Counted from the stretch's first letter, positions 3,352-43,402 are shown. The stretch is DNA of 51,915 nt from a virus (IMGVR_UViG_3300006916_000006:1-51915), one strand, 5' to 3'. The notes: generated by a model not told the origin, from the sequence alone. Made by a program: numbers and translations.

Positions 3352-4082
3352 CATATCACCTAAGCAACCCACAACCTATAAGCGAGTATGACCCCATGCA
3401 TCCAAGCCTCACAAACATCCCCACAATAGAAATACCGATGTTCACTTCGCGCCCAAAAGCCACATCACCCACACTGGGGGATATAATAGAAGAGTTAATG
3501 ACATTGCCTTTGCGAACTCCAACCGCATACTTCATGTATGCACCATCACTAACAGTGTCTGACACCAACAACACACCCCGCACCAACACCACCCCCAACA
3601 CACCCAACACCCAAGGCACACCAGAGCAAAACCCTTATTTACTGACGCCCTCACTCCTACCCACACTCCCACTAAGCCCGGAGCCTTTGGCCAACAGCCG
3701 CCGTCAGTACCCTTTACTCAATGACATATGCTGCTACCTCCTTGCCCACTCATCATCCAGTGGCAATTCCTTAACCACTGCGTACCCCCTCTTCGTCAAT
3801 GAGCGCCGCCGCCAGCCTTCTCCGGCGCTGAACTCTCACAGAATGTTTGAACTAACCCAGAAAGTCATCTACGTTGATCTCCCCCATGGCACAAATCGTA
3901 CCCGGAGAAAATTAGCTATGTGTTTATATCTTGTCTCGCGTTTTGCAGCTCCCCCACGGGTGGGCAGTCTGGCGTGGAAAGAATCTCAGAATTTGATGAA
4001 TTGGTTACGGCGAGCGTCTGTGCCTAATGAGAGCGATGGGCGATATAAGAACTCCCCCGCCACCAATATTACCCCCGCCTAG
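3342..4082 (+). CDS. hypothetical Pro/Thr-rich protein (true start probably downstream, near 3397)
   Basis: 246-aa ORF before the primase; the annotated ATG lies inside the promoter. Confidence 0.55.
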   Translation: MLKSYHLSNPQPISEYDPMHPSLTNIPTIEIPMFTSRPKATSPTLGDIIEELMTLPLRTPTAYFMYAPSLTVSDTNNTPRTNTTPNTPNTQGTPEQNPYLLTPSLLPTLPLSPEPLANSRRQYPLLNDICCYLLAHSSSSGNSLTTAYPLFVNERRRQPSPALNSHRMFELTQKVIYVDLPHGTNRTRRKLAMCLYLVSRFAAPPRVGSLAWKESQNLMNWLRRASVPNESDGRYKNSPATNITPA

Positions 4083-4139
4083 CCGCCAACATTACCAAAA
4101 CACACCACCTACAACCCAAACCACAAAGGCACTGCAACC

Positions 4140-7100
4140 ATGCCCTACAAAATCCCACAACCCCCTCTACTCTTCCCGGCACTGACGCCAAAGACATTCT
4201 ATGACTTAAATTGGAATCCATTCCCTGTTCACCCCCCATCATCCCCCGTCTATGAGAACCCCAAGCGCGTCCCTGCCGCAGTCATTAAACATTGCACAAC
4301 GACACCTGCGTCAAACCTACTTCCCCCTGAAGACCAACACCCCTATGAACCTCACTCACTTGTGGGCAAACTGCCCGCCATAGCTGGCTGGCGTGGCAGA
4401 CCCAAACCTGCGGCCTTTATTCCATCTCATTACACTCAGCCACAACCCATGAACATTGGCCTTAATCTGCCAAAGACCATCCTTGTCCTCGACGTCGATA
4501 ATCATAATCCTGACCCACAAAATCCCTCAGAGCCAAACCAGAACCTCCGGCAACTCTGTGAAGACCTTAGCTTAAACGAAGACTATCTGACCCACGTTAA
4601 AACCAAAGACGAAGCGCGTAATGCGACGTGGTTACAATACCTCCTCTCTAATGATTCCCCATCACGCCAGGGGCAACTGCCCGACCACTTCCTGCGTGCC
4701 ATCACTGACCCTAACCTCCACACACCCCCAACACCCCACCCTGCGAAAGCCCACGGTGCGTCATGGGGGTCCTCTTTCTATAAACGTAATCCCATCCCTG
4801 ATGACCTCACAGACGAACACGGTCTTCCTGTCACTGCCCTTGACCTTATGACCCCCTACCGTGTCTTAACCGGCAGCAAACCTCACCCCGGCACACATCT
4901 GGCCTTTCGTATCCCCGCCGAGAAAGCCACACAAATTCGCAAGAATCTCAAATCCTACCCCGGCATTGATTTTCTCAATTACAAATCCATGATACTAGCG
5001 CCAGGTTCTGTCCACCGTAGCAACAACTATTACACCCCATGCCCACTCAACTTCACACCCCCCTGCGAAGACAACCTCATTGGCATCCTTCAATACTTCC
5101 GGGCGTCCCTACCCTTCGATAAGGCTGTCAAACTCAAACCTGAGAAACTTCAGCGTATCCGTGAGACTGAGCCTGAACTATGGCAGAAACTCTGCGACAC
5201 TTACCTACCCCTCCTACACGCTTACACAGCGAGGTTAATGTTATCCTGGACACCACAAGCCCCCGCAGCTCTGTTAAACGTCCTGACAAACAATTATACC
5301 CCACGGCAGTTCCTATTCCCTAAAGGGTTGTCCCCGACCCCCCATGCCTCCACCCTCAGCGACCCAAACACCTCTGACAGCGCCAACCCCCCTATCTATG
5401 AAACACCTGAGTCTATTGATGACCTCTTATCTATCTACCATAACTCCACAGAAACCCCTTATGACACAGACGAAGATGACCCTGAGAATCATGCGACCGC
5501 AGAAGACCTCTTCAAACACGACCCACGCACACACACAGAGGCCACACAACTCTGTAAAACCCACCCTGCGGCCATAGAAGGGTGTGGGGGTAATTTAACA
5601 ACCTTCACACTTGCGGCCAGACTTAACGACCTTCACCTCCATCCCGACACCGCGATGGAACTAATGGAAATCTGGTACAACCCACGTTGCGAGCCACCGT
5701 GGGACTCAACCGAACTTGAGCAAATCATTATCAATGCCTACACCTATTGCCACCGCAAACCTGAGACGGCAAAGCAAACCATCGACCGCCTTTTCCGCGA
5801 GGCCAGAGAACTTGCGGCCTTAACCCAGGAAGCAGAGACCACCACACTGACCAAAGAACAGGCCACACAATCCTCTGCGGATGAATTTGACACCCTCATG
5901 TCTCAATTCATTAAAGACAATGAAAAACTGTCCCCTGTGCCAACGCCCACGCCCACACAGCCCTCTACCCCTGTCCAAACCGCAAAAGAAGAACCCGCAG
6001 AAGAGCCTACCGGTGCGCCCATCACGCAACTGACACCCAAAGAGCGCCCTGACACAGACATACCCCTCTTACCAAACATCCCGCCGTCAGACCTGTACCC
6101 AAAATCATCCCCCGACTCCGGCAAGACCATTTATAGTTTCATGCCTTTAGATGGCCAGCCACACCCAGCAGGGAATCCTCAGACCCGTGTCCCAACAAAA
6201 GACAAGCGCCTTGAAATCTTCAATGAGTATTCTGGCCATCAGACACGGGCAGATATTGAAGAACAACTTGAGTCTGAACGGCGTACATGGATGAACGAAG
6301 TCGAGATCATCACCGATGAAAAGTCCGGTGCGACACGACTCAACCCTGCGCGTAAACTTAAAAATATTTCCCTCTTTTTGACACACCTCGAAGAGTTCCA
6401 GGGATTATTGTCTTATTCAACCTTTGCAAACCAAATCATCGTCACGCGTCCATCACCCATCTTTACAAATCGGATACCCGAACTCTGCCCTCGTAACGCC
6501 AAAAATTTCCCTCACCATATCGGCGTACCCCTCGACGACCGTATTGAAAGCATCATGAAGTCCTACCTTGAGCGTTACTCTCAATTCGGCCTTGATGACC
6601 AAATGCGCGACAGTCTCCTCTATAATGGTATCAGCGTAGGCAAAGACCAATTCACTGAAGCTGTACAAATGGCAGCCTATGCAAACCCATCTCATCCTGT
6701 TAGAGACTACGCCCTTGAGTGTCTTCTCAAATGGGACGGTGAGACACGTTTATTTGATTGGTTGCCTCAGATTGCCAACACAAAAACAGACATCTACACC
6801 CGCGAGACTGGCGCACTTATGATTCAGGCCATCATTGCGCGTGCGTTTAACCCAGGCCACAAGTTTGACTACATGTTTGTCCTCGACGGGGAAGAAGGTG
6901 TGCGGAAGTCAACTTTGTGCCGTACCTTGGCAATACGCCCTGAATGGTTCAAAGAATCTTCTATGGACATTGAAGACCCAAAAAACATCATGGAACAGAC
7001 GCAGTCCTCTCTCGTGGTGGAAATGCCCGAACTTGTGGGGATGTATAAACGTGAAATTGAAGCCATGAAACATTTTATCACCACCACCAGCGACCACGGC

Positions 7101-36789: not shown

Positions 36790-36939
36790 ATGGAAGAAAA
36801 AGTAAAAATAAACTGGGACGTTATTAGGGCTAAAATGGCCGTTAATTTCTTTCAGGCTGGCGCTGCATTTTTGGGTGTGGTTGCGACTGCGGCGGCGACG
36901 GTGCTGTTCATAAAAGTAATTATGGTACTTTCATCATGA
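36790..36939 (+). CDS. small membrane protein (49 aa, not in ORF track)
   Basis: GAGG RBS; ..FFQAGAAFLGVVATAAATVLFIKVIMV; ATGA overlap with the next gene. Confidence 0.6.
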   Translation: MEEKVKINWDVIRAKMAVNFFQAGAAFLGVVATAAATVLFIKVIMVLSS

Positions 36940-37253
36940 CCAGTAACATATCAAAAGAGGCGATTGCTGAGACGTTGCGGTTTGGCGATGAGTTAGAAAA
37001 ACGTAATAAACAGATGATAATGCAAGCGCGCCGTGTTGGCAGGAATGATGCAATGGGAGCGCTGCTAGCAACTCGTCAAGTCCGAGAGCTTGCGGCAGAG
37101 CTGGAAAAGAAGGATGCGCTGGTGGATGAGATTGAGAGGATATGCGCCCAGCAAGACTTCAATGACAAGATGAACCGCGTTATTGCTAACGGACTAAGTC
37201 CAACAATCTCGGAGACGGTGCTACAAGAAATCAAAGAAGCGAGGGGTAAGTGA
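36936..37253 (+). CDS. hypothetical coiled-coil protein
   Basis: 105-aa ORF in the island. Confidence 0.7.
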   Translation: MTSNISKEAIAETLRFGDELEKRNKQMIMQARRVGRNDAMGALLATRQVRELAAELEKKDALVDEIERICAQQDFNDKMNRVIANGLSPTISETVLQEIKEARGK

Positions 37254-37324
37254 TGTGTAAAAATATGACAATAATCTTTGCACGTTTTTAGAATATGTAA
37301 AAAAAAAAACAGGAAAATTTTAAC

Positions 37325-37708
37325 ATGAACAACATTGAAAAACTGATTGAGAATGGTGGCTGGCGGCCTATTAAGGAAATATCTAGGTATCATGGAAGGG
37401 GAAGATTAATGATGGCGATTCGCCTTTTTTCAGGTGAGCAATCTTATGCACTTTTGGAACACGATGCGCTTCTTGGGCATGTCGTTCACTGGATGAGCAA
37501 TTCAGTTATTAGTGTAAGTTCTATTGATGTAACCCACTTCATGCCGCTTGATACCGCAGAGCGCATGGCGAAGGTGATTGAGGTGTTAATGATGCGCTTA
37601 GCACAGATTGCCAGCGGTGATTACAAAGCTTGTGGCGCAACGGCGGAGGAAGTGGCTGCATCTGCGTTGTTAGAGGTAGAAAGGATGATGGGGGTAAGTA
37701 ATGCGTAA
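37325..37708 (+). CDS. hypothetical protein
   Basis: 127 aa; WRPI..VTHFMPL pattern (DUF551-like). Confidence 0.7.
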   Translation: MNNIEKLIENGGWRPIKEISRYHGRGRLMMAIRLFSGEQSYALLEHDALLGHVVHWMSNSVISVSSIDVTHFMPLDTAERMAKVIEVLMMRLAQIASGDYKACGATAEEVAASALLEVERMMGVSNA

Positions 37709-37805
37709 ATCAACCTACCGCCTGTTACAATGCCTCGGCCAGCTTGTGTTTTGGGGTGCTTTTTTGGGCGTTGTTATGCTCGGTATTATAGGATTAGGCT
37801 TATGA
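37701..37805 (+). CDS. 34-aa membrane peptide (not in ORF track)
   Basis: MRKSTYRLLQCLGQLVFWGAFLGVVMLGIIGLGL; overlaps both neighbours. Confidence 0.5.
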   Translation: MRKSTYRLLQCLGQLVFWGAFLGVVMLGIIGLGL

Positions 37806-37981
37806 TGTTTGCCTTAATATGCTTTACGTTTAGTTGCGTTGAGCCGGATAAGATACGGGCTTTAGAGCCTATCATTGTGGATAACCGGGAGGAGTGCCGG
37901 ATTCACATTGATGGTGAACTTGCCGACTATTCAGAAAGAAATTGTGACGCTGTGTTGGAACAGCTTAAATTAAGGGGGTGA
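37802..37981 (+). CDS. small hypothetical protein
   Basis: Likely start at the ATGA overlap; MMFALICFTFSCVEP... Confidence 0.5.
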   Translation: MMFALICFTFSCVEPDKIRALEPIIVDNREECRIHIDGELADYSERNCDAVLEQLKLRG

Positions 37982-37982
37982 C

Positions 37983-38066
37983 ATGGACTGTTTTTGGGGT
38001 GCATTTTTTGCTATACTGGCTTGGAAGGTAATCGCCTTCTTGTGGGAGATTTATTACCATGGCTGA
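37983..38066 (+). CDS. 27-aa hydrophobic peptide (not in ORF track)
   Basis: GGGGG RBS; MDCFWGAFFAILAWKVIAFLWEIYYHG. Confidence 0.45.
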   Translation: MDCFWGAFFAILAWKVIAFLWEIYYHG

Positions 38067-38376
38067 TATTCTTAAGTTCCAGAACGCCAATCAGTTAAGG
38101 GATAATGATTCCTTAGAGCGCGAATTAAGCGAGGCAAGGCAGCTGATCGTTGCGTTAAATACCATGCTGTTAGAACAGCAATCCGTGGCTGATGTTTTCT
38201 GCAATGGTTACAAAGAACTTGAACAAGCCGTGAAGTTGCTTGAACAGGATCGAAAGCACTCCATGGAGCGGTTTATGTTTGAGCAAAAGCGTAACGTGCA
38301 TTTAATGGAAAAGCTCGATGCCTTAGAGTGGAAATATAAAGAGGCAATGCGCTGGCGATATGAGGGGGCTGATTAA
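38059..38376 (+). CDS. hypothetical coiled-coil protein
   Basis: 105 aa, GGAG RBS. Confidence 0.7.
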   Translation: MADILKFQNANQLRDNDSLERELSEARQLIVALNTMLLEQQSVADVFCNGYKELEQAVKLLEQDRKHSMERFMFEQKRNVHLMEKLDALEWKYKEAMRWRYEGAD

Positions 38377-38612
38377 CACCCCCACTTTCCACACACCTTC
38401 TGATCTTTTAGCCTAAAGGGCTTTGGACAGTCTTCACGGTTAAGTTGGTGCCTGTCAAGTTGGCGCATAAGAATGGGGTCATTATCGCGGATATATTCGC
38501 GGGTATCAGAATACCAACTAAAGGTCTCCGATACGTCGCAAAAGTCACCTGTCGTATTTTGACAACCGCTTATCAATGGCAGCATCAGAACTACCATTAG
38601 ACTTGTCAGCAT
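38373..38612 (-). CDS. o-spanin-like lipoprotein
   Basis: Signal peptide and lipobox MLTSLMVVLMLPLISG-C; overlaps the i-spanin 3' end in another frame. Confidence 0.8.
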   Translation of the reverse strand: MLTSLMVVLMLPLISGCQNTTGDFCDVSETFSWYSDTREYIRDNDPILMRQLDRHQLNREDCPKPFRLKDQKVCGKWGC

Positions 38613-38763
38613 TCCGCTTTGCTTTTTGCATTGCTTCAACATATCGCTGCTTATCCTCCAACTCCGCTTTTAACTTGGCATTCTCTTTAATATTGCGGTA
38701 CGCAATATAGCCAACACCCAGTAAAAACAAACCAATCAAGCCGAACGTGTAAAGGTTAGGCAT
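38545..38763 (-). CDS. i-spanin-like protein
   Basis: N-terminal TM helix plus periplasmic coiled coil. Confidence 0.8.
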   Translation of the reverse strand: MPNLYTFGLIGLFLLGVGYIAYRNIKENAKLKAELEDKQRYVEAMQKAKRNADKSNGSSDAAIDKRLSKYDR

Positions 38764-38977
38764 CTTTCTTCTTTGGCAGCACTGTTAGCTTGTCTTTGGC
38801 GGTAAAGCGGCCATACACTGTTAATACAAAGCCAACAACGCCCACTAAGCTGTCAATGAACACCGGAGCTGTTTCAGCAATATCCGCCGGTACAAGATCG
38901 CCAATGCCAAACAAGGCGGCTGCGGATGCTAATGCACCCCACAATGTCTTTGATTTAATAAAGTTCTTAAAATCCAT
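38756..38977 (-). CDS. holin-like two-TM protein
   Basis: KSKTLWG..two hydrophobic helices..VYGRFTA, basic C-terminus; follows the endolysin. Confidence 0.75.
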   Translation of the reverse strand: MDFKNFIKSKTLWGALASAAALFGIGDLVPADIAETAPVFIDSLVGVVGFVLTVYGRFTAKDKLTVLPKKKDA

Positions 38978-38991
38978 AAGGTTTCTCCTCG

Positions 38992-39423
38992 TTAGGTAAT
39001 ATTAACACGTTTTTTCCATTCTTGCACGTCAAAGGAAGGACACGCCTTTCCACTGTCAAGTTCACGATGGCCAACTATCTTTGCCTTCGGGTAGTTTCCA
39101 TGCCAATAGCTTATTAAATCCAGCAGGGCGCTCCACTGCGCGGCTGTGAAGTTGTCTTCTGGCTGACCATGCTCATCTATACCACCAACCATACAAACGG
39201 CTATAGAGCGGCTGTTGTAGCCCTTAACATGCGCTCCGGGTATGCGTTCCCATCTTCCGCGCTCAACGCCACCATTGCGGCGGATAACGGCGTGGTAGCC
39301 TATTTCCCTGAAGCCGCGCTCTTTATGCCAACGGTCAATCTCGTCCTTTCCAATGTCCATATCCGGCGGGGTTGCACTGCAATGGATGACGATGTAATTA
39401 GTTTTGGTGCGCTCAATGGTCAT
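38992..39423 (-). CDS. endolysin, T7-lysozyme-like N-acetylmuramoyl-L-alanine amidase
   Basis: IVIHCSAT, IGYH, GAHVKGYN..SIAVCMVGG, GHREL, KACPSFDV (Zn ligands H/H/C). Confidence 0.95.
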   Translation of the reverse strand: MTIERTKTNYIVIHCSATPPDMDIGKDEIDRWHKERGFREIGYHAVIRRNGGVERGRWERIPGAHVKGYNSRSIAVCMVGGIDEHGQPEDNFTAAQWSALLDLISYWHGNYPKAKIVGHRELDSGKACPSFDVQEWKKRVNIT

Positions 39424-39947
39424 TGTAAATGCTTTAACACCTCCGCGATAATATACGCAATAGAGCCTAATGTGGCTGCAATGGCGGCAATAATGAACTT
39501 CATGTTATCCTTTACCACCTCCCACAATACGGAGCCTAGTTTTGGGCGCTTGGAGGGGTAATGATCCTCCCTTGGTGGTGCAATTTCAGTCACGCCCGCC
39601 ACCTGTGACAAGAAAAAGGCAAAGCTATTATCCTGATTTACCTTTGTCACTTTCAACTTAATCTTAACAATGCGCCCTAACTTAGTGATGTAGCGCTTAT
39701 ACATGATATAACTTTCGCGCTTGCCTGTGGCCACTTCCATGGCCATTTGCTCATCCGCCTTTAAATCATCGGGATGTGTAATATCCTGCCAGCGCTTGCC
39801 CTGCAATTCAACCTCGGCATATTCTGTTATGTTGCAAAAGGTTGGGTTTGCCTCCAGAAAGGTGCCATCTTGCGCCACAACGGCGGCACCGGTCAGGCTT
39901 TCTTCCCACAGCGCCTTCATAAAACCTGGGTCGCTGCGATAGGCCAT
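39420..39947 (-). CDS. PAS-domain protein with C-terminal transmembrane helix
   Basis: GAAVVAQDGTFLEANPTFCNITEYAEVELQGKRWQDITHPDDL..G..SY..YKRYITKLG is a PAS/PAC pattern; FIIAAIAATLGSIAYIIAEVL TM. Confidence 0.88.
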   Translation of the reverse strand: MAYRSDPGFMKALWEESLTGAAVVAQDGTFLEANPTFCNITEYAEVELQGKRWQDITHPDDLKADEQMAMEVATGKRESYIMYKRYITKLGRIVKIKLKVTKVNQDNSFAFFLSQVAGVTEIAPPREDHYPSKRPKLGSVLWEVVKDNMKFIIAAIAATLGSIAYIIAEVLKHLQ

Positions 39948-40330
39948 TACGGCGTCTCTAGTTTAATTTGCATCATAATCCAAACGCAACCAAGCGTTAT
40001 TCCAACTATGGATGCTCCACTAACAAACCACGCAATAAAGCGAATATACCACCGCCTGCAATTCATCTTATCCAGCAACGCCGCAAGTTGCGTCACCTTT
40101 GCATCCAGCGATCTAACCTTTTTATCCATGCTTTTTAGCTTTTCATCAGAAACAAGGCGCTGGGCGCGTATTTCTTCCATCTCTTCGCGTATCTCATTTA
40201 AAAGATCAATCAGGCCGTGCCTCGCCTGCTGGGCTTCCCGGCATTGATGCTCAAGAAGTTCTTGCGATACTTTCTGCCGCTCCTCGATGCGCTTAACCCC
40301 TTCAGCGATTTCTTTAAGGTCATTAGACAT
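39947..40330 (-). CDS. coiled-coil protein with C-terminal TM (holin/anti-holin-like)
   Basis: Long heptad region then FIAWFVSGASIVGITLGCVWIMM; TAATG coupling to the PAS gene. Confidence 0.7.
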   Translation of the reverse strand: MSNDLKEIAEGVKRIEERQKVSQELLEHQCREAQQARHGLIDLLNEIREEMEEIRAQRLVSDEKLKSMDKKVRSLDAKVTQLAALLDKMNCRRWYIRFIAWFVSGASIVGITLGCVWIMMQIKLETP

Positions 40331-40946
40331 ACGCCGCCACCATACCAACACACAGGCCGCTAAGCAATTCAGATACGTTCACCGCTAGCTTGTCGCTATC
40401 CTTGCGCCAGAATAGCCCTGCAAAGCGATAGGATGCACCAAAGGCAACCGCTAACAGGGGCAGCACAAGAACAAGGAGGGGGTTAGAAAAATACGCCCCC
40501 ACGGCCACCAATGGTGCAAATCGTACCAATGCGTCAAAGGTCATCCATATCTGGCCATATAAACGCATGGAAGAGGGTTTATCAGGGTTCGGAGTCCCGT
40601 CAGTAATCTTCTTATATACCCACTGTGCAGGGCGGTCTTTCCACCATTTCTGCCCCTTAGGGGATTCGTAAACATCGTTGCCCAGCTCGTTACCATGAAT
40701 GGCCAGAAAACCCCTGCCCCATCCAAAGGCAACCGCCCAGCATAAAGCCACAGCTAAGGCCACGCTATGCTGCCATATATCCGTTAGGAACAGGTAGTGT
40801 AGCCCTGCCATGTATAGCGCATAAGGATACTTGCCTGTAATCCAATCCAGCCACTTTGGAGCGCCGTAATCAGAATAGGTAATGCCCCGCATATAGCGCC
40901 ACAGCAGGCCGAAGATGATAGCATAGGTGGCTTGGGACAGAATCAT
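40323..40946 (-). CDS. multi-pass membrane protein
   Basis: 207 aa with several hydrophobic segments, Trp/Gly-rich. Confidence 0.75.
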   Translation of the reverse strand: MILSQATYAIIFGLLWRYMRGITYSDYGAPKWLDWITGKYPYALYMAGLHYLFLTDIWQHSVALAVALCWAVAFGWGRGFLAIHGNELGNDVYESPKGQKWWKDRPAQWVYKKITDGTPNPDKPSSMRLYGQIWMTFDALVRFAPLVAVGAYFSNPLLVLVLPLLAVAFGASYRFAGLFWRKDSDKLAVNVSELLSGLCVGMVAAYV

Positions 40947-41725
40947 TACGCCGCCGTAACAGAAAGTTGGCCGCTGTTTACCGTAAAGGCATTGCCTGAT
41001 GTTACGGTCACGCTGGAGTCTAATGCGCCATGAATAAGGCGATTCCCAGATGATGCCGCATCCTGAATGGCGAAGTGGGTTGCGGCAGTCCAGTTACCCG
41101 TCGCTGTCGGGAATGTAATGGTTACATCGTTTGAAATAGAACCGCTTGATGCTGTGCCAAACGAGGCAGAAACATCGGTACGGGCATATGCATTGCCTGT
41201 CAGCTCAGTGCCGCCCGTTGTGTCATTCGTAGCATCAGAATACAGCGCCATGTAAAGGGAGGGGCTGGTATAGGTTGCACCTGCAAATACATGGTCAAGC
41301 AGCTCATTGGCAAGGTAGTCAGCGCATTCCCCCGCCGTGAAAGCGATGGTTAATTCTCCGATTGCAATGTTGGCGACTTCCCCGTCACCAACCGCCTTTC
41401 CGGTGTCAAACGCCCCGTAAACAAGCAGGTTTCCAGATGTGGATGCGTCAAAGATACCCCAGTGCGTTACTGTACCCCATGAACCTCCGGACGCTGCTAC
41501 CGTTGTGATTGCGACGTCATTAGCGATGGTGCGACTTGCTGCTGTACCAAAGGCGCTTGAAATATCCGTTCTGGCGTATCCATTACCAGAAACAGCCGTA
41601 CCGCCACCCGCATCGTTTGGCGTGGCCGTGTAAAGCTGTAAATACAGGCTAGGGCTTGTGTACGCCGCGCCCGCAAAGACGTGATCTAGCAGCTCATTTT
41701 CTAAATAATCTGACATTTGTGACAT
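40946..41725 (-). CDS. virion fibre-associated protein with tandem duplicated domain
   Basis: Two copies of DYLxNELLDHVFAGAxYTSPSLY..GNxYARTD..FGTA..THxxIxDAxxSGN. Confidence 0.8.
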   Translation of the reverse strand: MSQMSDYLENELLDHVFAGAAYTSPSLYLQLYTATPNDAGGGTAVSGNGYARTDISSAFGTAASRTIANDVAITTVAASGGSWGTVTHWGIFDASTSGNLLVYGAFDTGKAVGDGEVANIAIGELTIAFTAGECADYLANELLDHVFAGATYTSPSLYMALYSDATNDTTGGTELTGNAYARTDVSASFGTASSGSISNDVTITFPTATGNWTAATHFAIQDAASSGNRLIHGALDSSVTVTSGNAFTVNSGQLSVTAA

Positions 41726-41734
41726 GATAATCTC

Positions 41735-43402
41735 CTATACGATTGATACGCCGTTATTGTTAGTCCAAGCCGATACACCGATAACCTCGTCATCATTAAC
41801 GTTGCTTGATGCTGAAATTGCAGAAATACACCCTGTTAATCCAGCCATTGTTGAGGCCGATGCCTGTGCGCTACCCGTCCAGACAGAGGATGCCGGGAAG
41901 TCTTGGTTTAAGAAAATAGCGGGTGTCTTCATGGTGCCGTCAAAGAAGCCATCTTCAGTATCGTTGTTTCCGAGGTTGTAATCATCAGAAACCCCGGTGT
42001 TTACCGTCAGACTTGTTGGTACGGAACCACCGCCTACGGATGTTCCGGTGTCTCCATTCATATACACCTTAACCCGGTCAACAGAGGACGCCTGCGTGCC
42101 GTCATAGGCAACGGCAACATAAATAGGTGTGTTAGCCCCGACAGTCTCAATAATAGAGCCGTTCTGGCCATATTCAGTGCCATTATGGCGGAAGTTAATC
42201 TGAACTGCGTCATTTACCGAATAGCGCTGGACGGCAACCTCAATCGCATTAGTAACCCCCGCGCCCGTTGGTGGCCCGAATATACCACGCACTGAATCAG
42301 CCGTCTCAAAGCCAATGGTAAAGGCAATCGCAAACTTGGTGACGGTAATGGTGCTGTTGGTTGTGTCAAACAGATCACGCGCACCGATAGAAAGCGTCTG
42401 GCTGCTGGTTGACTCAAAGTCCATCGTTCCGTCGACCGCTGGCGTCACTTGCGTGGCATTGCATGAATTGGTCATGGCAACCGTGGCATCTGCCCCTGTA
42501 AAGTTGACAGCCTGCGTGGCGTTGCATGAATTGGTGATAGCAACACTAGCAACCGTTCCCGATAGCAAGATTGACTGAGTAGCGGTCAAGGAGTTCGTCA
42601 GGGCAAGGGTGGAATCTGCACCCGTGAAGAAGACACGGTTTGTTCCCCACTTGTTAATCAGATAGGTATGAATTGCCGCCGCCTCTCCATCCGTTACATA
42701 GCGGTCATAAATTAAAACCTCACCGATGCGCCCATTAGTGTATGTGCTTACTACGCCGTTAGAATCCCTTGCGCCTAGCGCCAACACATCCACTGTGGTC
42801 TGCCCAACATCAATAGAGGCTGTGTTTAGGTCAGCGCCGTCAAGGCGTGTTGTTGCGGAGGTGCCAGCCGCGTTAGTTCTGAAAGAGAATACATGGGGCG
42901 TTGTGTCCGTAGTTCCGCCAATCGGGCCAATAGCACTGCCACCTGCGTCTTCACGCTTAATGTAGGCATATTGCGTGGCTGTTTGACGCAAGATCATTAA
43001 AGAGTCTGCATCGGCGGAGTTACCCCACACAAGTAAGTCGTTATTTTGCAAGGTGTCCATCTCACACACCATAAATGCCGCCATAGGTGTGTCATCACCG
43101 CTAAACAGGGATGCAAGGCTGTTGACGTTCATCACATCTGAGCCAGTGAAGTCAATGGCGGGGTTGCCGTCCATGCCAGCGGCTTGGTAGGTCGGTCTAT
43201 CAGCTCCTGAAGATGTGAATGAGGCGCTGCCATAACGAGATGCCCACGCGCTCACCAAGTCACTGCCATCCTTAGTGATGGTGGAAAGTTCTGTTGCATC
43301 GACCCACAGCCGCAGCCCCTCTGCGGGGTACGCGGGCGGCAAAACACTTGCGGAACCCAGGATTGAGGCCACACTCGTAGGGCTGAATCCCAGCCCCAAC
43401 AT
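41735..43402 (-). CDS. head fibre protein with LamG/concanavalin-like domains
   Basis: MLGLGFS start coupled (TAATG) to the spike base; LRLWVDA..VSAW..GRIGEVLIYDR..YLINKWG. Confidence 0.75.
   Translation of the reverse strand: MLGLGFSPTSVASILGSASVLPPAYPAEGLRLWVDATELSTITKDGSDLVSAWASRYGSASFTSSGADRPTYQAAGMDGNPAIDFTGSDVMNVNSLASLFSGDDTPMAAFMVCEMDTLQNNDLLVWGNSADADSLMILRQTATQYAYIKREDAGGSAIGPIGGTTDTTPHVFSFRTNAAGTSATTRLDGADLNTASIDVGQTTVDVLALGARDSNGVVSTYTNGRIGEVLIYDRYVTDGEAAAIHTYLINKWGTNRVFFTGADSTLALTNSLTATQSILLSGTVASVAITNSCNATQAVNFTGADATVAMTNSCNATQVTPAVDGTMDFESTSSQTLSIGARDLFDTTNSTITVTKFAIAFTIGFETADSVRGIFGPPTGAGVTNAIEVAVQRYSVNDAVQINFRHNGTEYGQNGSIIETVGANTPIYVAVAYDGTQASSVDRVKVYMNGDTGTSVGGGSVPTSLTVNTGVSDDYNLGNNDTEDGFFDGTMKTPAIFLNQDFPASSVWTGSAQASASTMAGLTGCISAISASSNVNDDEVIGVSAWTNNNGVSIV

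Follow-up and report, generated by a model that had tools for sequence, protein, structure and literature searches.

The 51,915-bp virus record IMGVR_UViG_3300006916_000006, referred to here at its full length as the window, is complete in IMG/VR and bears direct terminal repeats, and it encodes on its minus strand a small protein, PAS-TM, in which a single PAS domain is joined to a C-terminal transmembrane (TM) helix. The gene belongs to a conserved phage family, and the presence of PAS-TM proteins beside wall-degrading enzymes in unrelated phages suggests an undescribed way of tuning burst time. The genes of the cassette, between 38373 and 41725, are all found on the minus strand, in the order fibre, 207-amino-acid (aa) membrane protein, helical TM protein, PAS-TM, Amidase_2 endolysin, 2-TM holin-like protein and the i- and o-spanins, as follows.

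40946..41725, minus strand: fibre protein, 259 aa, with two tandem Gp80-type domains (PF23140, E value 2.2e-73 over two stretches; phrog_240)
40323..40946, minus strand: multi-pass membrane protein, 207 aa, by hydropathy; the gene begins within the fibre stop
39947..40330, minus strand: helical (coiled-coil-like) protein with a C-terminal TM segment, 127 aa from an ATG at 40330 or 134 aa from a GTG at 40351
39420..39947, minus strand: PAS-TM protein, 175 aa, by Pfam, AlphaFold2 (AF2), Foldseek and hydropathy
38992..39423, minus strand: endolysin, an N-acetylmuramoyl-L-alanine amidase (Amidase_2), 143 aa, by Pfam and PHROG
38756..38977, minus strand: holin-like protein, 73 aa, by topology and position only
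38545..38763, minus strand: i-spanin (Rz-like), 72 aa, by PHROG and hydropathy
38373..38642, minus strand: o-spanin (Rz1-like) lipoprotein, 89 aa, by signal peptide, lipobox LISG/C and phrog_456 (E 0.008)

The initial annotation described PAS-TM as one PAS domain followed by a short linker and a C-terminal TM helix, with no kinase, GGDEF or DNA-binding output, and this description is borne out by Pfam, hydropathy and AF2. The translation contains both of the motifs quoted at that time, KRWQDITHPDDLKADE and IMYKRYITKLGRIV. Pfam places PAS_3 (PF08447) at residues 31-107 with a score of 40.6 bits, the cut-off being 25.6 (E 3.2e-10), PAS (PF00989) is also above its own cut-off (E 6.4e-6), and no Pfam match at E<=1 was found to an output domain of the HisKA/HATPase, GGDEF, EAL or helix-turn-helix (HTH) type. 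An AF2 model based on a 32-row alignment has a predicted local distance difference test score (pLDDT) of 91.8 and consists of PAS strands (20-24, 29-33, 79-87, 93-105 and 108-123) and helices up to residue 123, a low-confidence linker at ~124-136, and two further helices at 137-147 and 149-174. A structure search had been proposed as the check on the fold, and the top Foldseek matches listed against the PDB are all PAS structures, with a probability of 1.00 and TM-scores by target of 0.78-0.86. The layout of the protein is thus N-terminal cap helices, a PAS_3 core (~16-123), a Pro-rich linker (124-136), a juxtamembrane helix with the conserved stretch VVKDNMKF, and a TM helix (~149-170) that corresponds to the single hydrophobic segment (residues 152-170, Kyte-Doolittle mean 2.06) and is followed by a tail of only 5 residues, LKHLQ, before the open reading frame (ORF) ends. 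Because there is no signal peptide and the TM helix lies at the extreme C-terminus, the PAS domain is predicted to be cytoplasmic and the protein to be tail-anchored in the inner membrane. PAS-TM is a member of the PAS fold, and not a kinase, cyclase or transcription factor.

Translational overlaps tie PAS-TM to its neighbors on both sides. Reading of the minus strand confirmed the two overlaps reported earlier, namely the ATGA shared by the PAS-TM stop and the amidase start (tcat on the plus strand, 39420-39423), and the TAATG shared by the stop of the upstream helical TM gene and the PAS-TM start (catta, 39945-39949). The overlaps extend further upstream, as the 207-aa gene overlaps both the fibre stop (ATGA, 40943-40946) and the start of the coiled-coil-like TM gene. 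Because the amidase ATG overlaps the PAS-TM stop, and because the sole Shine-Dalgarno-like site for the amidase is a GGAGG ~15 nt upstream of this ATG, translation of the amidase is probably coupled to that of PAS-TM. The amidase itself is well matched by Amidase_2 (62.4 bits against a cut-off of 26, E 7.4e-17) and by the phrog_822 amidase family (5.5e-66), and is without a signal or signal-anchor-release (SAR) segment.

Downstream of the amidase, a 2-TM holin-like gene and an i-/o-spanin pair had been anticipated, and hydropathy, the lipobox and weak PHROG matches agree with this assignment. The 73-aa protein has hydrophobic segments at residues 11-29 and 36-54, a C-terminus rich in Lys and a strong ribosome-binding site (GAGGAG), and its family matches are weak (DUF7940, E 0.058; phrog_29088, E 0.0075). 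The i-spanin gene, which overlaps the end of the holin-like gene by 8 nt, encodes an N-terminal TM segment at residues 4-22 followed by a charged helical region (phrog_1026, 2.7e-4; phrog_4349, 5.8e-3), and the o-spanin gene overlaps it in another frame at 38545-38642. The interval 38373-38763 therefore has the N-terminal TM protein and overlapping lipoprotein gene of a two-component spanin, with Rz-like PHROG matches that are weak, and the spanin pair implies a Gram-negative host. At the other end of the cassette, the structural genes end with the fibre gene (GP4 fibre I; labelled 'head protein' in PHROG), ahead of the membrane and lysis genes. These arrangements support the view that the PAS-TM gene is hard-wired into the lysis operon of the window phage.

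Small proteins with the layout of PAS-TM occur in other phages. Pattern scans yielded 21 viral loci at first and 47 later, together with the best 80 of 393 metagenome loci and the best 80 of 594 genome loci. Among the 181 loci with a BLASTP match, the distance from the PAS start to the stop codon is <=260 residues in 50, and the rest are large kinases or GGDEF/EAL proteins that match residues ~5-121 only. The small form was found in just one of the 80 bacterial-genome loci (L025), a contig of a metagenome-assembled genome. In total, the family comprises at least 44 small phage proteins (32 distinct members that were aligned and 12 further distinct ones), a protein collection contains 8 such proteins of 170-225 aa, and the ESM Atlas holds an all-viral cluster of 83 PAS proteins of ~187 aa. 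Small PAS-like proteins, which are candidates for membership, are also recorded by BFVD for the Cellulophaga phages phi19:1 and phi18:3 and for several uncultured Caudovirales. The family members are stand-alone proteins of ~160-280 aa with a C-terminal membrane anchor, and the 32 aligned members share the PAS domain, the linker, a pre-TM motif [FW]x[KR][DN]N[WLM], a TM segment rich in small residues, and a tail [AS][EQ][VI]xxxL. One way in which the initial annotation could have failed, namely that the homologues are scattered fragments of host diguanylate cyclases or kinases, does not describe proteins that retain this whole architecture: PAS-TM represents a conserved phage family rather than a piece of some host kinase or cyclase.

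Beyond the PAS domain, the members differ in architecture. A coiled-coil-like extension of 30-80 residues follows the TM helix in a subset of the family (L010, L106, L109, L115, L162, L166, P0007, L193, L208, L212, L221 and L233), where it would lie in the periplasm, and a second TM helix, forming a 2-TM hairpin in some cases, is found in L006, L105, L110, L196, L201 and L025. Members of the L218/L020 lineage have a weak hydrophobic segment.

The PAS core shares 35-48% identity with the PAS domains of large cellular histidine kinases and GGDEF/EAL proteins, keeps all 20 of the columns conserved in these cellular relatives, and differs from them at 4 phage-specific positions (W14, M68, I87 and T88). 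A quick tree was made from 32 phage and 126 cellular PAS cores, the cellular rows being non-duplicate, nearly fully covered proteins that extend >260 residues beyond the PAS start. In this tree there is one label change, the 32 phage rows being separated from the cellular ones by a branch with a weak support of 13, and 31 of the 32 phage rows fall in one clade with a Shimodaira-Hasegawa-like approximate likelihood ratio (SH-aLRT) of 79. The tree is compatible with a single origin of the phage family, and does not show it.

The relation of the family to lysis genes was assessed by running 12 endolysin families against the whole records of 24 IMG/VR viral relatives. Ten of the records yielded an endolysin-type domain, which is <=2 kb from the PAS-TM gene in 8 of them, as follows.

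L001: DUF5675, adjacent, 10 nt downstream of PAS-TM
L012: Peptidase_M15_3, adjacent, overlapping upstream of PAS-TM
L195: Peptidase_M15_3, 1.7 kb downstream, same strand
L203: Phage_lysozyme, third ORF downstream, 0.8 kb, after two membrane ORFs
L214: Amidase_2, 1.9 kb from PAS-TM
L218 and L219: CHAP, 0.57 kb downstream, past two tiny ORFs of 31 and 55 aa (membrane/lipoprotein)
L222: Amidase_3, 0.29 kb downstream, past two tiny ORFs of 57 and 31 aa (membrane)

Under uniform placement, 1.08 near cases would be expected in 10, giving P = 3.7e-7 for the 8 observed, and collapsing related lineages leaves 5 of 7 near (P = 9.5e-5), values that are weakened by a 2-kb limit picked after the data had been seen and by a null that ignores operon structure. 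Six endolysin families are represented near PAS-TM genes. The DUF5675 arrangement is repeated on metagenome contigs L104, L107 and L108; DUF5675 is reported to be a C82-peptidase-like lysin domain in a 2026 preprint (bioRxiv 10.64898/2026.04.11.717860), and the DUF5675 protein has no match among PDB sequences. The check set by the initial annotation, whether PAS+TM homologues in IMG/VR are linked to endolysins, is thus passed in 8 of the 10 records with an identifiable endolysin, and linkage of the family to lysis genes is supported.

Two sets of loci add strength to this linkage. The same PAS lineage is associated with a CHAP endolysin in L218 and L219 and with Amidase_3 in L222, so that the endolysin has been exchanged while the PAS neighbor was kept. 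In L012, the order is M15_3, PAS-TM, a 1-TM protein, a 2-TM protein, an Rz-like protein (phrog_89, 3.8e-5) and an Rz1-like lipoprotein (phrog_456, 1.7e-7), and the PAS-TM gene thus lies within a complete cassette in another phage, unrelated to that of the window. When the ORFs of the window were compared with the +/-6 kb flanks of 21 relatives, the PAS gene and antisense frames were matched and, besides these, only one other match was seen, of 59 residues in L019 and several kb from the PAS gene. From this near-total lack of other flank matches it follows that the PAS-endolysin adjacencies arose in unrelated phages.

With respect to gene content, the ~36-kb phages L218 (3974-5555) and L222 (17-1424) share, in addition to the PAS lineage, a 41-aa 2-TM ORF after the endolysin, and differ in the tiny ORF before it (55-aa and lipoprotein-like in L218, 57-aa with 2 TM segments in L222), which provides a clean example of module swapping within a lysis cassette. 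A cluster that is cassette-like by topology only occurs in L008 (2871-5160), where a 92-aa multi-TM ORF with a charged tail, a 65-aa ORF, PAS-TM and a 183-aa ORF are followed by a 109-aa coiled-coil ORF with an N-terminal TM segment and a 131-aa ORF with a signal peptide and C-terminal TM segment. The 183-aa protein could be an unrecognised endolysin; it has no family and no match against PDB sequences.

Several observations weigh against a universal role in lysis. No hit to the 12 endolysin families was obtained in 14 of the 24 records, many of them fragments of 7-64% completeness, and five more families run on 5 of these 14 records gave no match, so that most of the family is uninformative rather than confirmatory. 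In L002 a phage lysozyme is ~35 kb from the PAS-TM gene, and in L212 the sole endolysin match is weak (22.5 bits) and >170 kb away in a 255-kb provirus. Cell-wall-hydrolase domains are found in only 4 of 98 ORFs within 3 ORFs of the gene in 21 relatives, although this survey relied on a greedy longest-ORF map in which spurious opposite-strand ORFs hid small same-strand membrane genes, and it therefore understates linkage (4 of 21 loci near a hydrolase). Apart from DUF5675 (L001, L104) and Peptidase_M15_3 (L012), the genes directly adjoining PAS-TM include a metallophosphoesterase (L005, L011, L106), ThyX (L006/L110), PhoH (L015), DNA methylase (L019, L025), terminase (L002) and baseplate gp25 (L010, L208). 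Furthermore, the holin-like neighbors are not homologous between loci, and there is no evident conserved phage partner for the TM segment. Finally, cargo genes tend toward the promoter-proximal edge of lysis cassettes or to positions after tail-fibre genes, and tail or fibre genes lie directly upstream of the PAS gene in L001, L104, L010, L103, L193, L201 and L202.

As an observation in its own right, a calcineurin-like metallophosphoesterase recurs near PAS-TM in four distinct relatives (L005:6767-7798, L011:1322-2053, L106:4434-4970 and L195:5157-6119), and in L195 PAS-TM and the M15_3 endolysin flank it.

The varied neighbors (DNA-metabolism, auxiliary-metabolic-gene-like, terminase and baseplate) and the fibre-proximal positions are what would be expected if PAS-TM were late cargo unrelated to lysis, namely a membrane-tethered, host-derived PAS domain occupying a fibre-lysis insertion slot and acting as a decoy or dominant-negative of host PAS proteins such as histidine kinases, diguanylate cyclases or Aer-type receptors. 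The identity of the PAS core to cellular PAS domains, with all 20 shared columns kept, is consistent with this explanation, and a conserved TM/juxtamembrane segment that lacks a conserved phage partner could therefore be directed at a host protein. A precedent is provided by phage peptides that bind the diguanylate cyclase YfiN (PMC8085984). Against this explanation, six endolysin families lie nearby in the informative records, far above uniform placement, the endolysin has been swapped and the PAS neighbor retained in the L218/L219 and L222 lineage, and the L012 gene is internal to its cassette and not at the edge. The life style of the window phage is also relevant. No tyrosine or serine recombinase was found in the window genome by searches whose controls were matched in 14/14 and 12/14 genomes, respectively, and the phage is for this reason probably virulent; with a complete genome and no recombinase, a cargo role that benefits the lysogen is unlikely in the window phage. 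A presumably virulent phage that co-translates the gene with its endolysin minutes before lysis would leave little time for the rewiring of host signalling. Taken together, a function as cargo is considered unlikely.

A different possibility is that PAS-TM forms the hole itself, as a sensor-gated holin or pinholin whose TM helices oligomerise and depolarise the membrane upon a switch in the PAS domain, triggering the canonical holin and endolysin. PAS-TM is a membrane protein with at least one TM segment whose stop overlaps the endolysin start, as for a holin; the single TM helix is rich in small residues (A/G/S) across the family and carries a conserved interfacial motif; the gene is at the 5' end of several cassettes (the window, L001, L203, L214, L218 and L222); and, like a self-contained trigger, it pairs with any endolysin and moves between unrelated phages. 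Usual holins, in contrast, are ~60-150 aa with a short, charged, hydrophilic C-terminal tail, and PAS-TM is 175 aa with a 125-residue folded N-terminal domain and ~5 residues after the TM helix, with no charged tail; to our knowledge, there is no precedent for a folded cytoplasmic domain of 125 residues on a holin. The weak hydrophobic segment of the L218/L020 lineage also speaks against hole formation. Moreover, the lysis-linked loci examined also carry small same-strand membrane or lipoprotein ORFs, and each includes a separate small holin-like ORF with 2-3 TM segments, so that a regulator fits better than a sole holin. Hole formation by PAS-TM is thus quite improbable.

The explanation that is favored, with a probability of roughly 0.5, is that PAS-TM is a tail-anchored, cytoplasm-facing PAS protein of a horizontally mobile phage gene family, and functions as an accessory of the lysis cassette that tunes holin triggering. 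The gene has the position expected for an antiholin or lysis-timing regulator, in the cassette and distinct from the holin, as the window has a separate 2-TM 73-aa gene. The topology, dimerisation, holin-triggering effect and sensing of PAS-TM are proposed to be as follows. By virtue of the ATGA coupling, PAS-TM would be made late and in fixed proportion to the endolysin, would insert into the inner membrane by its C-terminal helix, and would probably dimerise by way of the N-cap and beta-sheet of its PAS domain. The conserved juxtamembrane/TM segment would then modulate the timing of the membrane lesion made by a separate small holin, PAS-TM acting as an antiholin-like or holin-tuning regulator, with timing set by the state of the PAS domain (bound ligand, cofactor or oligomeric state). 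Such a module would work with any endolysin, and could therefore move between unrelated phages while staying beside the resident endolysin. Given endolysins of six folds and non-homologous holin-like ORFs, the target of PAS-TM is probably generic, such as the membrane or its energised state, the oligomerisation of PAS-TM itself or a conserved factor of the host, with a specific phage protein being less likely. Complex prediction for PAS-TM (32-member alignment) and the 73-aa holin-like protein gave a score of 0.00 in two runs without control runs, and counts neither way on binding. A more specific and rather doubtful version is that PAS-TM is a portable lysis sensor, which reads a cytoplasmic state (redox or energy via a flavin- or haem-type cofactor, or a metabolite), gates the holin so that the burst would be timed to host physiology, has spread horizontally among unrelated environmental phages, and works with at least 6 endolysin families.

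Comparison with known systems helps to define what such a regulator would resemble. The T4 antiholins RI and RIII (PMC11413866 and PMC8385771) are accessory proteins that adjust holin triggering to a signal and are dispensable for lysis, like the role proposed for PAS-TM. They differ in having no PAS domain and no relation to PAS-TM in sequence or fold, the T4 genes do not adjoin the endolysin gene, and the T4 signal is superinfection sensed in the periplasm, whereas the sensor-type domain of PAS-TM would face the cytoplasm. Of the two, RIII works on the cytoplasmic face, and RI is associated with the membrane or periplasm. Among regulators encoded in lysis cassettes, lambda S107 is an antiholin that sets lysis timing. 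P1 LydB (PMC9025707) and the Mu releasin system (PMC9239132) likewise involve small membrane proteins in or beside a holin-endolysin cassette that set lysis timing, as proposed for PAS-TM. Unlike PAS-TM, all of these are without a folded sensor domain and are mostly holin isoforms or short TM proteins, and profile searches with Pfam and PHROG detected no homology of the PAS-TM family to cassette antiholins or endolysin regulators.

Likenesses on the sensor side are those of fold and part order. The PAS domains of sensor kinases and GGDEF/EAL proteins (PAS_3 / S-box-PAC) have the same fold as PAS-TM and share with it N34, E47, T57-H58-P59, D61, D65, Y80, K84-R85-Y86 and G91, but the bacterial proteins have an enzymatic output where the phage-encoded PAS-TM members have a C-terminal membrane anchor. 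Aer-type energy sensors have a similar order of parts in their N-terminal half, with a cytoplasmic PAS domain, a linker and a membrane segment, and a 2-TM hairpin is even present in the family members L006, L105, L196 and L201. Aer, however, has HAMP and methyl-accepting chemotaxis protein (MCP) signalling domains and a flavin adenine dinucleotide (FAD) cofactor, and PAS-TM has no Pfam match to HAMP or MCPsignal; the Aer PAS structure 8dik is at rank 12 of the fold matches (E 4.1e-7; profile E 7.5e-4), and other PAS structures match better. VqmA-Phi of phage VP882 is a receptor composed of PAS and HTH domains that triggers host lysis. It is thus a phage-encoded PAS sensor that decides lysis time, as proposed here, but differs in being a soluble transcription factor with a DNA-binding output on a lysis-lysogeny switch, and not a cassette membrane protein. 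Literature searches on PAS domains in phage lysis, on phage-encoded PAS proteins and on PAS domains in viral genomes turned up, to judge from titles and abstracts, no account of a lysis cassette with such a protein (supplements were outside their scope). By analogy, the role of PAS-TM would be most like that of antiholins and lysis-inhibition regulators, without a shared fold or sequence.

The two membrane genes upstream of PAS-TM in the window have few relatives. For the gene at 39947..40330, described in the initial annotation as a coiled-coil and TM gene and as a possible partner of PAS-TM, the TM part stands, as hydropathy finds one C-terminal segment, and the coiled coil is backed by weak matches to many coiled-coil families (E 0.005-0.8). 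The 127-aa protein is an ORFan, with one match, 97% identical, on a 9.3-kb contig (25 candidates; 5.8 billion proteins searched), and its gene is beside the PAS-TM gene in no relative examined. As a conserved partner of PAS-TM it was rejected; since the gene is an ORFan the partnership is unsupported, and its tight coupling in the window phage remains. The 207-aa protein belongs to a small uncharacterised family (11 matches at E<=1e-3 among 1.84 billion representatives, mostly 175-235 aa) with invariant residues R20-G21, H84-G85, Y173, G177, E193 and G197, which look more like the signature of an enzyme or transporter than that of a holin. It is confidently modelled by AF2 as a helical bundle (pLDDT 84.2), has no Pfam or PHROG family and no PDB fold match (best E 0.27), and in the ESM Atlas is found only in viral clusters without a name, below 0.9.

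Clustering with these two uncharacterised membrane proteins, together with the frequent position of PAS-TM genes right after tail-fibre or tail-tip genes, raises the question of whether PAS-TM is an envelope protein with another late function, for instance superinfection exclusion or the shielding of progeny from re-adsorption; genes of the superinfection-exclusion type often follow tail-fibre genes. A folded domain that is predicted to be cytoplasmic would be out of reach of receptors or of incoming periplasmic DNA, and the tie to endolysins is closer than that to fibres, in that the genes overlap directly in the window and in L012 and are 1 nt apart in L001. An envelope function is accordingly regarded as very unlikely.

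The remainder of the window genome is divided by strand, with a DNA polymerase, helicases, a primase-helicase and an exonuclease encoded on the plus strand, and the minus strand carrying the genes for terminase, portal, tape-measure and tail proteins. The placement of the lysis genes between the head/fibre genes and the head-tail connector/tail genes is unusual for a siphovirus-like layout. A small island of plus-strand ORFs of 49-127 aa at 36790-38376, at least two of them helical or TM-like, separates the minus-strand lysis cassette from the minus-strand tail module and converges on the end of the o-spanin gene. A strongly negative GC skew of -0.37, far beyond that of the rest of the genome, is found at 4001-6000, within the gene for the 1215-aa primase-helicase. 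No tRNA genes were found in the window, and promoter- and terminator-like sites are not more frequent in it than in shuffled sequence.

No cultured close relative of the window phage was found among 50,697 deposited phage genomes. Its TerL is <=35% identical to that of any of them, tblastn with the PAS-TM protein gave zero matches at E<=1e-3, and blastn with window positions 38000-42000 gave a single irrelevant match of 110 nt. Searches for syntenic relatives through the amidase yielded 8 loci at 48-52% identity, with a PAS gene adjoining in none of the 4 that were inspected, and searches through the 207-aa protein yielded none.

Lysis timing sets phage fitness and, lysis inhibition of the T4 type and a small number of recent cases aside, is generally taken to follow a clock intrinsic to the holin. 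With the work described here, at least 44 phage proteins that have so far been labelled only 'PAS domain' or 'hypothetical' in databases are brought together as one family. If the favored explanation is true, the presence of a conserved ligand-sensor fold in lysis cassettes would imply that an intracellular cue helps to decide when many environmental phages lyse their hosts, and the PAS domain with its tail anchor would be a tractable modular part for the study of holin regulation and for signal-controlled lysis devices.

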